Positions 920 to 29,418 of a DNA stretch of 64,000 nt are shown here, piece by piece. Each line of letters opens with the position of its first letter. The stretch's first letter is position 1. Both the position numbers and the translations under genes were made by a program. This DNA is from Escherichia coli (lineage in GTDB: Bacteria; Pseudomonadota; Gammaproteobacteria; Enterobacterales; Enterobacteriaceae), in NCBI RefSeq assembly GCF_051903065.1, contig NZ_CP178438.1. The stretch is one strand, 5' to 3'. A model generated the notes under the pieces. That model had not been told where the DNA came from, did no database searches, and saw nothing but the letters and a program-made list of their open reading frames with translations.

Positions 920-1651
920 TCACCTGCCATCCAGTAGACGCCCCGGCCCACGACTGCAACCATAATTACGTTGCCCAGAACCGTCATGCTGCTTCGTCTC
1001 ATACTTCACGAGATAACAGGCTCTCTCCATGGCTTTCTGCATCGCTTCCACATCACCACGCTTGACCCAGAGAACAGCGGCTTCACCCGGCTTTTTGTCT
1101 GAAGCCTTCCTGGTTTCAGAACATCCACCCGACAAAGGCGTATCATCGGAAGAAGGGCGAGCATCAGATGATGTCGGTTTACGGAAAGGCGTCCGCCTGG
1201 AAAAATGAACCAGTCCATTACCCTGCCAGGGCTCGAGATGCAGAGCACTGCACCATGCCAGCTTGATCAGCGTCGCCAGCGAAGAAGGAACGGTGAAATC
1301 CCCTGGCGAGCACCAGGTATCTTTGTTGAGCAGTAATATCACGTGATAATGTTTCCTGCCTTTTTCCTTGCCAAACTCCCGACACCAGAAATAACGCAGA
1401 GTGGTTGCACGCACACGCTTGTTGGCACGTCGTTTTTTCCGCTGGTAAGCCTGAATTTTTGCTTTCAGGGATTCGAAAAAACGAGAAATCACTGCTGAAT
1501 CTAAATCGGTATCCATAATAGTGGCAGGCATATACTCAGGAAAACGTAAATCCACCCGAATTAACGAGACGGCACGGTGCTGCACTAGGGCACTGTCGAG
1601 AAGGCTGTCAAAACGGGATAACCAGTAAGCATTGTGTATTGGTTGATTCAT
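920..1651 (-). CDS. YfjJ/YagK-family protein (inovirus Gp2-like) of cryptic prophages
   Basis: 243 aa ORF; recalled similarity to E. coli YfjJ/YagK paralogs; sits beside the CP4-like module. Confidence 0.7.
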   Translation of the reverse strand: MNQPIHNAYWLSRFDSLLDSALVQHRAVSLIRVDLRFPEYMPATIMDTDLDSAVISRFFESLKAKIQAYQRKKRRANKRVRATTLRYFWCREFGKEKGRKHYHVILLLNKDTWCSPGDFTVPSSLATLIKLAWCSALHLEPWQGNGLVHFSRRTPFRKPTSSDARPSSDDTPLSGGCSETRKASDKKPGEAAVLWVKRGDVEAMQKAMERACYLVKYETKQHDGSGQRNYGCSRGPGRLLDGR

Positions 1652-2499
1652 GATGAGAGATCTCCGTTGATTTGGATTGACTTCACATCATTAATCACTG
1701 CGGTAAAACTTTACGGCATCCCGCCATTGAGCAACGCCAATGGCTCCTGATTAAAACAGAATGAATCCCCCACGAAGAAAAGATAAACCTACACGCAGGG
1801 TAAAACACACAACAACGGCATAAATGGTTTTTAAAAACTACAAAGCCCGAAGGGAAACGGATCAACAGAACGTGCAAACAAAACACCAAAAACGCAATCA
1901 GAACGCTTTCTGCTGCTGTGAATCAACAACAATACCAAAACCTACAGCTTAACCACAAAACTCAATCACAGAGCCGAATAGCGCGTTTAAAACCTGTTTA
2001 CAGATAACCCTGCCCCGAGAACAAAAACCACCAACATCAGAATCGATTTTCTTATCCTGAAAACGTTACTTTTCAACACACCATAAAAACGATTAACCAT
2101 CGATAACGTAAATCTCATCTGAATCAAAACACCAGAACCAATCATCACGCTTTTTCTGAAAAGAGCCTTATGATGAAGATAATCACCTTGCACTGAGAAA
2201 AAACACCAGGGCCAGTTAATCATCTCATCAATCTTATCGCTACAAAATCATCCATAAAACCATTTAACAAAATCATCGTAAGCACACAGTAAATCACGCC
2301 AGGTTATCTCAGCCGGATTTGCGTTTTACATAAAAACACTTGTCTCAGGTTAACGACTAAAAACACGAAAACTCATAAAAGGTTAAATGTAACATCAGAA
2401 AAATAGAATATCATATTGATTGCTTAAACAGGAAAGATTGTTTTGTAGTAGCATTAAGCTGATTTTAGTTAACGTAAAAACAGGACTGACAGGTTTACT

Positions 2500-2722
2500 A
2501 AACTGGATGTGTATCAGACAAAGCAATGTGTATAACAATACTTAATGAAAACACTTGTAGAATTGTTTATGAAAACATGTGTATGTCTGGTAAAACACTT
2601 AGTAGAAAATACGTGTATAACACTTACTGAAATGCTTAGTAAAAACACTTAGTAAAATATGTGTAGAATTATCTATTTAAAAAGATATGTATATAACACT
2701 TAATAAAAACATGTGTATATAG
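2500..2722. repeat. Array of degenerate direct repeats (ATGTGTAT / AACACTTA units), iteron- or operator-like
   Basis: At least seven copies of ATGTGTAT-like and five of AACACTTA(G/A)TA-like motifs within about 220 bp of AT-rich DNA; fused unit GTGTATAACACTTA seen at about 2612 and 2687. Confidence 0.55.
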
Positions 2723-3401
2723 TATCATACCGACATTCTCAACATCTTCAGACACTCATGCAGACTGAATGTTCGTTTCAGTTTTTCACGGCCAGCATGG
2801 GGATTTTTGTTCTGAAAACGGAGCAGATTTACTCTGGAATTATTTTTCTGTCCCCGTATTTCAGGCCCCAGAAAAGACAATCCGAAGCAAACCGTTTGTC
2901 AGCTTCCATATCATCTTTTACCCCCGGAAAGTGATCGCGTTTTACAACCAGAATGACAGCCATACTGATTATGTCGTCTCCCGGCCCCCTTCACATATAA
3001 CATGCATGCCTGTCATTGCTTACTGCTCCACATGACAGGATTTCACATACAGGATGCGCATTCAGTGTTTTTATCGCCACTATAACAGACAGATTACTGT
3101 CGCTTTTACTCTTCAGATTGTTAATCTGACCACAAGAACAGTCGAACAGTACAACGACACACCCAAGGAGGATATGAGCAGTAGTTGATAGCATGTTTTA
3201 ATTTATTATGAATAGATCAAGAATAGATCGTGAATAGTTAGAGAATAGTTCTTCAGCATCTCACAGAGTGATCAAGCCTTGAAGTGATTGCTTTTTGAAC
3301 ACAAGTCCGGATGCAATGTTTTTTTGTTAACTTCCTTGCATATTCGATTTCCATGTGATAGTGAAAATCACCAGAAGAGAATGCGATTGAGGCGTAATCA
3401 G

Positions 3402-4211
3402 ATGAAACAATATGAAGATGGTTATAACGTGAATGGATATAGCTGGGAAAATGAAACAATTGAGTATTTGTTGAATGATAAACAACTGACAGATAATCAC
3501 ATACCTGAATGGGTTAAAAAAAATGAAATTGCAGCATTCTGGTTCTGGTTAGTTATAATTAACACAGATCCCAAACTCCTTGGGGTTCGTAATGAATTAG
3601 GGTTCAATACAGCCATGATGGGGCTGATTCCTGCGGGGAGTATACCCATAACAACAATTCCTTCAGATCATGAAATGAGACTGGATGTTATAAGCAAATG
3701 GATTAATGCATTAATCCTTGACAATCAATCAGATTGCTTCATCTCAACAATGCATCAAAACTGGCTGCAGATCGAAAAGAGAAACGAAGCCAAATGGCTT
3801 AAAAAGAATACAGAACAACTCGAATGGGCATGGAAATATATCAATGCACGCATCCCGCACACGTATCTTTCCTGGTTTTATCCTGTAAGTGATAACGAAA
3901 GATACATTGCTATCGTAGTTTTACTAAAAATTTTATTCCCCGCAGATACACCATACTTACAGCAGCCAAAAGTACTTCACTATGGGGTTGCCGCAAAAGA
4001 AAAATTTTTCGACAAGATGCACAATGCATTCCGAAAACAGTTTACCGACGGAAAAAAAGATAAGCGGGTACAAATCAACGTTAAAATATCATCAGATGCA
4101 AAACGTACTCTGGACAGACTGACCAGAGAACTGAAAACAACACAACAGGCTGTCCTGGAACATCTGATTCAGAACCACAGGCTGGTGATTCAGAACCACA
4201 GACTGTATTAA
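3402..4211 (+). CDS. Hypothetical protein with C-terminal ribbon-helix-helix-like segment
   Basis: ORF 3288-4211; preferred ATG at 3402 (MKQYEDG) preceded by GAGG. C-terminus RVQINVKISSDAKRTLDRLTRELKTTQQAVLEHLIQ resembles an RHH DNA-binding motif. N-terminal about 220 aa unrecognised. Confidence 0.5.
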   Translation: MKQYEDGYNVNGYSWENETIEYLLNDKQLTDNHIPEWVKKNEIAAFWFWLVIINTDPKLLGVRNELGFNTAMMGLIPAGSIPITTIPSDHEMRLDVISKWINALILDNQSDCFISTMHQNWLQIEKRNEAKWLKKNTEQLEWAWKYINARIPHTYLSWFYPVSDNERYIAIVVLLKILFPADTPYLQQPKVLHYGVAAKEKFFDKMHNAFRKQFTDGKKDKRVQINVKISSDAKRTLDRLTRELKTTQQAVLEHLIQNHRLVIQNHRLY

Positions 4212-5155
4212 CTTTCACCACTTCTGCTCCTGCCGATTTTCTTCTTTTGGTAGTGTCTCCTGGCTGCGGATATCAGATACTTTTCCGTCATTTTGTTGCA
4301 GAACTCTTCAATGTAGTTAATCATTTTCTGGTGTGCTTTCAGCTTTTCTTCCCCGGGGGACGCTTTCAGATAAATGTCCTCCTTTTCCACAAGCGCATTG
4401 ACAAACTCCCCTAAACATCCCTGGTTATAAAGCGACGTGAAAAACAACACATCCCCCAGTCTCTCCAGTAACTGTGGTTTATCCCCGAAATGTTTTTTTA
4501 TACTTTCAAAAGGTTTTCTATTTTCCGGATCAAAAAAAACACTTAATCCCAGTCGCTTATATTCCTGGTAAAAAAGTTCAAACGTCGGGGATGCTGAACG
4601 GCAAATAAACGAAGACTGCGCCCATGGATTAAAATCTGTGACACGCCTCCCCTCCCGCACTTCCTGTCGTGTCAGCGGTGGTTCAGCAAACCAGGCGTCC
4701 AGCTCAGCCGAATCGTTATCCCTGCTCAAAACCTCATACAAACTGCCCGTGAACGGTTGAGCCGTTTGTTTTGTTGCTTCGCCTTCTGATTGTCTGAATC
4801 CATCCACTTTTCTCCGGATATTACGCGGAATCAGCATAAAAGGCGGGACATTAAGTGATAAACGTTTACCCGTCATGCGATACCATTGACCTACCTCAAC
4901 CTTAATCCGTGTATCTGACTTTAGCTCAAGTGCCATTATGTTAAGCAGGTACAGATAACGCACCGTATAACGATTAAAATGTTTCTCCGGATCAAACGAT
5001 TCTGACCGTTCTCCTCTGTACACGAGTCTGCTGCGCTTCAGTATTCGCAGAGTATATTTCCAGGCCGGACTTTTACAAATGGCGGTAACTCTGGCCTTAT
5101 TAACAATGTCGCGTAATGCATCAATCTGTTGTGCAGTCATCTCTTCCCTCCACAC
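4208..5155 (-). CDS. Hypothetical protein, no recognisable domain
   Basis: 315 aa ORF (alternative start 5140, MTAQQ). Convergent with the previous gene; stop codons overlap within TTAA. Uninterrupted long ORF, basic C-terminal tail. Confidence 0.5.
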   Translation of the reverse strand: MWREEMTAQQIDALRDIVNKARVTAICKSPAWKYTLRILKRSRLVYRGERSESFDPEKHFNRYTVRYLYLLNIMALELKSDTRIKVEVGQWYRMTGKRLSLNVPPFMLIPRNIRRKVDGFRQSEGEATKQTAQPFTGSLYEVLSRDNDSAELDAWFAEPPLTRQEVREGRRVTDFNPWAQSSFICRSASPTFELFYQEYKRLGLSVFFDPENRKPFESIKKHFGDKPQLLERLGDVLFFTSLYNQGCLGEFVNALVEKEDIYLKASPGEEKLKAHQKMINYIEEFCNKMTEKYLISAARRHYQKKKIGRSRSGES

Positions 5156-5246: not shown

Positions 5247-6131
5247 ATGTCATTCAGCCATTCTTCCCTCTCCGCACAAGTGAAATCATATCTGACGTTT
5301 CTTCCTGAAGAAATTCGCCAGAAAATCCTTGAACATCTCCACGGTGTTATTCATTACGAGCCCGTGATTGGCATTATGGGTAAATCCGGCACCGGCAAAA
5401 GCAGTCTGTGTAATGCCATTTTTCAGTCCCGTATCTGCGCCACGCATCCCCTGAACGGCTGCACCCGCCAGGCTCATCGCCTCACCCTGCAGATTGGTGA
5501 ACGCAGAATGACGCTGGTCGATCTGCCCGGCATTGGTGAAACACCGCAGCATGATCAGGAATACCGGGAGCTTTACCGTCAGTTACTGCCGGAACTGGAT
5601 CTGATTATCTGGATCCTGCGGGCTGATGAACGTGCGTATGCTGCTGATATTGCCATGCATCAGTTTTTACTGAATGAAGGTGCAGATCCCTCGCGTTTTC
5701 TGTTTGTTCTCAGCCATGCCGATCGCGTGTTTCCTGCTGAAGAATGGAACGACGCAGAAAAATGCCCGTCCCGTCAGCAGGAACTCTCACTGGCGACAGT
5801 AACAGCCCGGGTGGCCACCCTGTTCCCGTCATCATTTCCGGTACTCTCCGTTGCAGCGCCTGTCGGCTGGAATCTTCCGGCACTGGTGTCACTGATGATC
5901 CACGCACTGCCACCACAGGCAACCAGCGCGGTTTATTCACATATCCGGGGGGAAAACCGCTCTGAACAGGCCCGGAAACACGCACAACAGACTTTTGGTG
6001 ACGCCATCGGGAAAAGTTTTGACGACGCCGTTGCCCGGTTCAGTTTTCCGGCCTGGATGTTACAGCTTCTGCGTAAAGCCCGGGCCCGCATTATCCACCT
6101 ACTGGTCACACTGTGGGATCACCTGTTCTGA
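5247..6131 (+). CDS. YeeP/YkfA/YfjP-family P-loop GTPase of CP4-like islands
   Basis: Walker A GIMGKSGTGKSS; G3-like DLPGIGE; recalled similarity to the YeeP/YfjP/YkfA family. Confidence 0.8.
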   Translation: MSFSHSSLSAQVKSYLTFLPEEIRQKILEHLHGVIHYEPVIGIMGKSGTGKSSLCNAIFQSRICATHPLNGCTRQAHRLTLQIGERRMTLVDLPGIGETPQHDQEYRELYRQLLPELDLIIWILRADERAYAADIAMHQFLLNEGADPSRFLFVLSHADRVFPAEEWNDAEKCPSRQQELSLATVTARVATLFPSSFPVLSVAAPVGWNLPALVSLMIHALPPQATSAVYSHIRGENRSEQARKHAQQTFGDAIGKSFDDAVARFSFPAWMLQLLRKARARIIHLLVTLWDHLF

Positions 6132-20140: not shown

Positions 20141-20495
20141 ATTGTTCAGTCTCTTATTATCTTTATATGCTTGATATACTTAAGGTTGTAATAAGCAAAA
20201 GAGGACTGAACTGTAAAATATAGGCGTTATACTTTACAGCAACAGTACGCCGCTAACGCAATTGCTACCTCTGGCATAACAAGTATATCGGGTAAGGGTT
20301 TCTGTTCCGCACACGCAGGCGCAGAGTATCGTTAAGATATCCATATTGTTGTTTTAGGCCCGCTAGTAATGCGCTACGGGTATTTAATATTGTTAAACCC
20401 TGATAATCGCTCCGGTTATTTCCGGGATAAATGTACTACCGCAGTTACTATCATAGCCCCGACAATAAAACTTGCCGGGGCTTTTTTTGACGCTA

Positions 20496-29047: not shown

Positions 29048-29418
29048 AGTTCTGTAGATAACAAAAAATTAACGGTGACAAACAGGTTGCAACAGCAACG
29101 AACGGCATCTTAATAATCAACCCAATGAATACAAACGACGAATAAATAGTATTTATTAATGATTACGATAAGGTCAGAGACTACACAGAAGCGCCACAAT
29201 GCCTTTTGTCGATTTAAGGCGACCGGACAAGGCTTCTTCTTAATATATTCATAAATTAAATATCATTCACAATAAAAACAAAAAAACTCAAACTCATTAT
29301 TTAAATCAATGTTCATTTTCACACTGATGAAAATACTATCTCATTTATCTTTTATGCCTATATAATCCACCGCATTATTGTCATTTTATTTTGGATATCC
29401 AATTTTTTCGTGGTGTAT

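Follow-up and report, generated by a model that had tools for sequence, protein, structure and literature searches.

A composite gene-free region beside a Gp2-family gene in a CP4-type genomic island of Escherichia coli, tentatively read as an intergenic control region

What purpose, if any, is served by a long gene-free region in a common genomic island of Escherichia coli? The region in question, 1.7 kb in length, spans positions 1652-3401 of the window, meaning the whole stretch of 64,000 nucleotides (nt) of contig NZ_CP178438.1 (assembly GCF_051903065.1) that was analysed, the start of which lies inside a CP4-type E. coli genomic island. It separates a gene of the Gp2 or YagK/YfjJ family on the minus strand from a plus-strand gene for a 269-amino-acid (aa) protein with a ribbon-helix-helix (RHH)-like tail. 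The original prediction described it as gene-free, placed between divergent genes and devoid of a convincing open reading frame (ORF), and this description holds, as the flanking genes do diverge and no ORF inside exceeds 88 aa. The repeats and the strand skew that it reported are present as well. The region is not a single unit, however, but a mosaic, a composite of five parts differing in conservation, in which a conserved module stops at about 2860 and a second repeat at 3210-3250 had been overlooked.

The explanation that we favour, with less than even confidence, is that the region serves as an intergenic control region, combining a protein-binding array at promoter-like blocks, an untranslated spacer driven by its composition, and a separate operator for the RHH-tail gene. 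It would lie between a leftward operon (Gp2, a hypothetical gene and an AlpA-like helix-turn-helix (HTH) gene) and a rightward module of cargo and YeeP-type GTPase. Pointing to this reading are the constant length of the module, an invariant leader, a promoter-like block, motifs clustered on one strand and a marked asymmetry of foldability between the two strands.

How much of the region belongs together can be judged from its distribution. The 1750-nt region matches 1876 of 5426 complete E. coli genomes (~35 %), in up to 8 places per genome, and at least 80 % of the query is held by 527 genomes. In most matches the similarity covers query positions 1 to ~930-1200 and is lost beyond them, so that 1652-2860 is inherited with the Gp2 gene and the rest with the right-hand neighbour. 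The same synteny recurs in all loci read, namely Gp2 gene on the minus strand, 1.1-kb module, variable cargo and GTPase gene on the plus strand. In type A loci, the cargo consists of the RHH-tail gene and a convergent gene of 310-328 aa; type B loci carry only a leftward gene of 376-407 aa, distantly related to the 315-aa gene of the window; and type C loci carry a longer RHH-tail homologue. The segment at 2753-2860 is the last that all island variants have in common. Beyond ~2860 the sequences differ with the right-hand cargo, and the plus-strand upstream region of the RHH-tail gene at 2861-3401 is accordingly cargo-specific, present in type A variants only and absent from types B and C.

The module was compared across 41 loci with 32 distinct sequences, collected by a metagenome scan with an invariant 18-mer together with genome matches. 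The alignment holds 30 variants, those without the insertion carried by two loci (L006 and L007), and coordinates derived from it are 1 nt low. Although the loci diverge by up to 24 %, 39 of the 41 place the invariant block that borders the module's repeat array on the right at 1100-1222 nt from the Gp2 start. Conservation is uneven along this distance. Directly upstream of the Gp2 start codon, a near-invariant leader at 1652-1726, comprising a ribosome-binding site and a putative control element, reaches a conservation of.94-.99, with a mean pairwise distance of.047 vs.088 at 4-fold sites of the Gp2 gene; no good sigma-70 match was found in it on the Gp2 strand. A first conserved block inside the G-poor stretch, at 1877-1951 (.91-.98 in the 30 variants), contains CCAAAACCTACAGCTTAA. 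The invariance of this element among the 30 variants is partly circular, because this 18-mer was the metagenome search pattern that supplied most of them; it is invariant too in independently retrieved loci. A second block, CCATAAAAACGATTAACCATCGATAACGTAAATCTCATCTGAATCAAAACACC, lies at 2027-2150 (.90-.97) and includes a weak promoter-like match on the minus strand running from 2076 to 2046. The third, at 2377-2426 (.94-.97), holds the best-scoring leftward promoter-like site of this copy, ATGATA-17-TGT-TACATT, from 2414 to 2386, with a position weight matrix (PWM) score of 11.2.

Composition sets the left half of the module apart. The ORF-free stretch at 1727-2400 is G-poor and A+C-rich on the plus strand and hence, in the Gp2 sense, G+T-rich and C-poor. 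Base fractions over 1700-2400 are A.404, C.251, G.140 and T.205, compared with window means of.25,.267,.246 and.238. The A+C fraction per 700 nt attains the maximum of the window at 1704 (0.659, against a mean of.517 and a standard deviation of.030, or ~4.8 standard deviations). The earlier description of this part as strikingly rich in A and C is thus borne out with one refinement: C is not enriched, and the anomaly consists of G replaced by A. The accompanying claim of long runs almost free of G needs a second qualification: the longest G-free run in the region, 38 nt at 2240, has roughly the length expected at 14 % G. The longest G-free run of the window, 78 nt, lies in AT-rich intergenic DNA at 29233-29310, which is also the second least foldable plus-strand segment of the window. 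Over 700 nt the C/G ratio is 1.8, and 281 consecutive 78-nt windows have a C/G above 1.3, the joint longest such run in the 64 kb.

No single strand in the window folds less readily than the plus strand of 1800-2550, which has a minimum free energy (MFE) of -36 to -40 kcal per 300 nt vs a window mean of -87 kcal per 300 nt (standard deviation 15), while the complementary minus strand is ordinary at -65 to -75. The composition pattern is also kept in copies that are 20 % diverged. To the right, 2400-2500 is 71 % AT and, together with 2500-2722, makes up the weakest-folding and lowest-GC segments. A 10-11-bp periodicity indicative of A-tract phasing or curvature was not found. A reading in terms of R-loops was dropped, as the minus strand has just 25 % G and almost no G clusters, judged by reading the sequence, with no predictor run.

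The array itself, at 2500-2722, is an AT-rich (74 % AT, 26 % GC) series of degenerate direct repeats on the plus strand. Its composite unit can be written approximately as AAACACTTAGTAAAAT-ATGTGTATA, with the better examples spaced 44-51 bp apart. At least seven degenerate copies had been announced, and the count agrees: there are 7-8 ATGTGTAT-like and 6-7 AACACTTA-like cores, all on the plus strand. Allowing one mismatch, ATGTGTAT has 8 copies within 2507-2718, all on the plus strand, and 42 matches on both strands of the 64 kb; AACACTTA has 6 copies within 2537-2702 and one more at 2335, again all on the plus strand, and 39 window-wide on both strands. Self-comparison pairs 2533-2619 with 2640-2719 (E=6e-5). 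Spacing from core to core is irregular (19, 51, 34, 48, 28 and 24 bp), and copy number ranges from 2 to 8 among variants through insertion and deletion of whole units. At the right edge of the array stands the invariant block TATAGTATCATACCGACATTCTCAACATCTTCAGAC (2718-2752, conservation.97), in which promoter-like hexamers overlap in both directions, TTAATA-17-TATCAT on the plus strand and TTGAGA-17-TATACA on the minus strand.

How might these parts work together? As a control region, the array and the adjoining invariant block would together form a multi-site protein-binding and promoter region, or switch, bound by an island-encoded or nucleoid protein recognising an A(T/A)GTGT core. The 0.7-kb G-poor stretch would be an untranslated spacer or leader that acts via its composition and not its sequence. 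A transcript across these 1.1-1.7 kb would go untranslated because there is no ORF there. Rho acts on RNA that is untranslated, unstructured and richer in C than in G. Read rightward, the stretch would yield a naked, unstructured RNA with a C/G of ~1.8 that Rho should terminate, and such a block would shield the array and the right-hand genes from transcription leaving the Gp2 side. In the opposite direction, that of the Gp2 gene, the RNA would be G/U-rich, with 14 % C and 25 % G, and a poor substrate for Rho; a promoter in or beyond the array could thus reach Gp2-alpA across ~1 kb without translation. Given these properties of the two RNAs, the stretch should act as a one-way valve. A read-through leader would also fit type B loci, because there the spacer lies between co-directional leftward genes. 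The distal 540 nt would belong to the RHH-tail gene, the product of which probably binds 11-bp GAATAG repeats described below. The stretch is untranslated, unstructured and higher in C than in G over at least 80 nt, which is a standard by which Rho utilisation (rut) regions are recognised. One report describes how Rho and NusG keep transcription from invading AT-rich DNA silenced by H-NS (PMC6797219).

A number of findings weigh against this reading. Promoter-like sites are scarcer in the region than in shuffled sequences (3 vs 7.4), the best PWM promoter matches are poorly conserved among variants, and the site in the third block has both hexamers altered in most variants, making it a weak candidate. 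Pyrimidine-C (YC) dimers are not enriched, at 11.0 vs 12.5 per 100 nt window-wide, and C or YC shows no 11-13-nt periodicity above shuffles. Within the array, motif columns show no significant excess of conservation over spacer columns (p=.2). The G-poor part has a distance of.147 vs.088 at 4-fold sites of the Gp2 gene and.126 at those of the GTPase gene, placing it at or above the neutral rate. In the two exceptional loci, L006 and L007, ~290 nt of it have been swapped for ~1.15 kb of foreign DNA. Independent insertion sequences (IS) have landed in three other copies (L095, L096 and L097), an IS1 at 1989-1997, an IS3-family element at 2562-2568 and an IS5 at 2598-2602. In this copy the leftward string of Gp2, hypothetical and AlpA-like genes is incomplete, because IS110 fragments occupy 1-840. 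Finally, the composition skew is missing upstream of most distant Gp2-family genes and so is lineage-specific; the idea that it is a general trait of Gp2-family upstream regions was rejected on that ground. The three IS-bearing copies are otherwise 100 % identical, and IS5 went into the CTTAG of an array unit. The replacement in L006 and L007 (3178-4331, equivalent to 1826 to 2114 of the window) carries a 176-aa hypothetical gene, WP_000778605.1, and this variant recurs in many genomes.

Could the region then be largely functionless? It might be AT-rich filler, an old, decaying non-coding remnant with a minisatellite, linked to the flanking modules and silenced by H-NS, with a skew that is inherited or mutational. 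We regard this as unlikely. Most of the region does evolve almost neutrally, as judged from the alignment, and the divergence at or above the neutral rate, the partial replacement, the IS insertions, the motif cores conserved no better than spacers and the absence of the skew from most other Gp2 lineages are all in its favour. So are the many insertions and deletions, among them a (CACCAT)n hexanucleotide microsatellite within the G-poor stretch, aligned to ~2015-2030, that is expanded in four loci (L005, L033, L032 and L072). Purines are at mutational equilibrium when the majority base is taken as ancestral. The region is also unannotated in nearly all of the 1876 genomes, where a feature almost never underlies the match. 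The history of the G-poor part is not congruent with that of the Gp2 gene.

Against mere filler stands the length of the module. Bacterial genomes delete useless DNA, yet 39 of the 41 loci have kept 1.1 kb within its narrow range. Conservation in five blocks far exceeds that of 4-fold sites, and every variant has the array. Filler would also leave unexplained the extreme asymmetry of foldability and the excess of C over equilibrium: among plus-strand pyrimidines the share of C is.55 vs.41 predicted at equilibrium by the polymorphism spectrum, a weak hint of retention. Selection, if there is any, would act on blocks, length or composition and not on most positions.

Might the region instead encode something? 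No trace was seen of a former coding sequence, the decay of which would have undone the original prediction: no reading frame is shared by the 30 variants (longest stop-to-stop 123 aa; translations were not compared with protein databases), and there is no period-3 signal, its power lying well below that of the neighbouring gene. One minus-strand frame is open in several variants and broken in most others, and no annotated gene lies beneath distant DNA matches.

A long noncoding RNA (ncRNA), which had been offered as one possible role, fares poorly. Under this proposal, transcription of the A+C-rich strand would produce a long ncRNA, devoid of structure, that functions in trans as a protein or RNA sponge; its plus strand is exceptionally unstructured over ~750 nt and the composition is retained in diverged copies. 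However, Rfam gives nothing at gathering score, and a permissive search only chance-level matches (E>2). RNAalifold, applied to both strands of 20 non-redundant sequences, found no conserved structure, with plus-strand energies near zero, weak minus-strand ones and a structure conservation index (SCI) of at most 0.59. No enrichment was seen for the motifs of Hfq ((ARN)n), Crc/Hfq (AANAANAA), CsrA (ANGGA) or MazF (ACA). The left end lacks a convincing rightward promoter, divergence is near-neutral, and such an RNA would be expected to be cut short by Rho. We consider this explanation highly unlikely.

A different answer is suggested by the left neighbour. The Gp2 gene (920-1651, minus strand; 'inovirus Gp2 family') encodes an HUH Rep-like protein with matches to Pfam YagK_YfjJ_C (E=2.2e-36) and REP_ORF2-G2P (E=1.2e-7), as well as to PHROGs annotated 'replication initiation protein'. 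Its HUH motif (HYH at 101-103, with H101 and H103) and Y213/K216/K220 are near-invariant in 12 homologues down to 19 % identity, and from these motifs it is most likely an active HUH endonuclease. The protein also has a 38-aa low-complexity insertion (RKPTSSDARPSSDDTPLSGGCSETRKASDKKPGEAAVLW) at residues ~160-198, between the HUH and Tyr motifs, that is absent from 11 other members. In intact islands, the gene heads the leftward string of Gp2, hypothetical and AlpA-like HTH genes (L003, and L001 for the paralogous YagK/YfjJ module), and it adjoins AlpA in relatives from Klebsiella, Proteus and Pseudomonas.

Because the motifs of this HUH Rep-like neighbour are intact, the region could be an origin, for replication or transfer of the excised island, with the array serving as a binding and melting site for the Gp2/YfjJ protein and possibly host DnaA, and the non-folding strand as the displaced or loading single strand. 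A replication origin was also among the roles first proposed. Direct repeats of variable copy number in 74 %-AT DNA would likewise suit the AT-rich unwinding region of an origin. The DnaA-box consensus is TTATNCACA, and TTATACACA at 2527-2535 fits it, accompanied by five one-mismatch copies in the same orientation. The paralogous module in L001 (6884-8479), from the same island region, has a comparable layout, with a YfjI-family (helicase-like) gene and a YagK/YfjJ gene separated by a 1.6-kb gap that holds no ORF of at least 50 aa before 8015, RATGGATR six times on one strand and one 200-nt segment with A.41, C.06 and G.30. DNA homology between the region and such paralogous long gaps (L001 6884-8479, L011 and L013) was not detected. 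Islands with an iteron oriV beside rep genes have been documented (10.64898/2026.01.12.698999).

Several features expected of such an origin are missing. There is no conserved hairpin for an HUH nick site, as none of five short inverted repeats within 60 nt is conserved and RNAalifold energies are near zero. An iteron origin would be expected to have at least three direct repeats, each ~17-22 bp long and set at regular, helically phased intervals; here the spacing varies irregularly from 19 to 51 bp. In most homologues other bases stand in place of the TTAT half of the DnaA-like boxes, and the region contains no consensus WATCAANNNNTTR for integration host factor (IHF). The array lies 850 nt from the Gp2 gene and tolerates IS insertions, and close family members (K-12 yagK, Citrobacter yfjI-Gp2) have upstream gaps of only 137-271 nt. 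Among the records searched, no plasmid, phage or other small replicon is built on or carries the module; phage and viral collections yielded no match to the region and E. coli plasmids only a few island fragments. An origin seems rather unlikely. A bolder version, which we hold to be quite improbable, would make the Gp2/YfjJ HUH protein the active initiator or nickase of very common E. coli islands and the module at 1652-2860 its cis site, with the array as the duplex that is bound and opened and the 0.7-kb non-folding strand kept available in single-stranded form, free of hairpins, for displacement, loading or priming. If true, this would be an origin architecture unlike both hairpin-based HUH origins and regular iteron origins.

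The right neighbour raises the remaining question, whether the array serves the adjacent RHH-like protein as its operator, one of the possible roles named in the original prediction. The gene at 3402-4211 (plus strand) encodes 269 aa with a C-terminal strand-helix-helix tail, a pattern common to homologues of 19-94 % identity. No family match is significant: RepC_IncLM (E=.002) falls below the cut-off, and RepB-RCR_reg (E=.08) and RHH_1 (E=.27) are weak, as is the best profile match to the PDB, HP0222 (E=.12). In the AlphaFold2 (AF2) monomer model an extended segment precedes helices at 231-244 and 248-268, with a predicted local distance difference test (pLDDT) score of ~80 there, and Foldseek returned nothing at E<1 with the model. 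An RHH fold is thus weakly indicated by these predictions.

That tail and its weak RHH-type matches would be compatible with an operator role for the array, as would its mean copy number, by our own count ~5.1 with the RHH-tail gene vs 3.3 without. The array, however, follows Gp2 in its inheritance and lies 680-900 nt upstream of the RHH-tail gene. Loci of types A, B and C all have the ATGTGTAT array, which hence is not tied to that gene; type B loci without such a gene within 4.5 kb still have it, with 2-5 copies. In addition, the gene has proximal repeats of its own, GAATAGWT four times at exactly 11-bp spacing (3210-3250, plus strand), 154-192 nt upstream of it and overlapping the sole minus-strand promoter-like site called by the scan (3234 to 3205). 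L002, L017 and L087 retain these repeats, L008 and L044 have two copies, and homologues with the same predicted beta-strand keep them despite differing flanks. The type C homologue (339-345 aa; L031 and L076) instead has GAAAACCAT four to five times, 330 nt upstream, in place of three to four GAATAG copies. Since the repeat motif co-varies with the protein subtype, the proximal repeats are the better candidate, and are likely the operator of the RHH-tail protein, whereas such a role for the array at 2500-2722 is highly unlikely.

The remaining surroundings are those of an island. IS110-family transposase fragments, frameshifted, occupy 1-840, directly downstream of the Gp2 gene. On the other side, a minus-strand 315-aa gene (4208-5155) converges with the 269-aa gene, their ends overlapping by 4 bp (4208-4211). 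Pfam, NCBIfam, PADLOC and PHROG give no match for its product, which shows distant kinship to a 407-aa protein at the equivalent position in UTI89-type islands. A YeeP-type GTPase gene follows (5247-6131, plus strand), then a DUF932 gene and the usual antirestriction/RadC/CbtA-CbeA module. The K-12 backbone marker C0719 lies at 20219, and there are no tRNA genes within the 64-kb window. Breadth across species rests on plasmid matches, as a search of genome contigs with one protein gave two close loci only.

Why should such a region matter? The module is unannotated and occurs in ~35 % of complete E. coli genomes. Among the core genes of CP4-type islands, elements with virulence, resistance and defence cargo, the one next to it (Gp2/YfjJ/YagK) is the least understood. 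A literature search found no description of the region, nor of YfjJ/YagK function, in searchable papers. If the module is a switch or an origin, it would offer a handle on when islands are expressed, excised or copied. A direction-selective Rho filter based on composition, if real, would show a simple way of insulating modules in mobile DNA, general enough to count as a design principle. Even filler would make a useful negative, in that extreme strand skew and a repeat array would not be enough to call an origin or a long ncRNA.

Several known systems resemble parts of the region. The control-region reading has relatives in rut regions and in Rho-NusG barriers protecting H-NS-silenced DNA (PMC6797219): both involve untranslated, unstructured RNA with more C than G over hundreds of nt, bordering AT-rich acquired DNA of the silenced type. 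Here, C and YC dimers are not enriched and C lacks periodicity. Pseudomonas islands have the same core gene set of IntY, AlpA, Gp2-like and RadC genes, in which the role of the Gp2-like gene is unknown (10.1101/2024.08.29.610337), and a Pseudomonas plasmid locus (L013) likewise has a G+T-rich segment between alpA and Gp2. Their gap is ~0.5 kb, a repeat array has not been described and there is no DNA similarity.

Among origins, the iteron oriV that neighbours repA in another family of islands (PIME; 10.64898/2026.01.12.698999), like those of PICI and SGI1, offers AT-rich direct repeats of variable copy number beside a replication-type gene in an island with AlpA, along with a DnaA-box-like sequence. 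In the present module the repeats are degenerate and irregular, the array is placed 850 nt upstream of the gene instead of immediately downstream, the neighbour is an HUH protein and not a RepA or Pri-Rep initiator, and the DnaA box is not conserved. Filamentous phages (Ff, If1 and IKe) also place a Gp2-family (HUH) gene, gpII, beside a long ORF-free region that contains the origin. Their intergenic (IG) region is rich in hairpins, in contrast to the least foldable DNA of the window, which has no conserved hairpin and no similarity to phage records. RHH operator arrays are known from the 11-bp iterons of R1 ParR/parC, the omega heptads and the CopG operators. The array at 2500-2722 departs from them in its irregular spacing and its independence of the gene with the putative RHH fold. 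The four GAATAG copies do fit, as tandem direct repeats at one helical turn that coincide with a promoter-like site upstream of a gene with an RHH-like tail.

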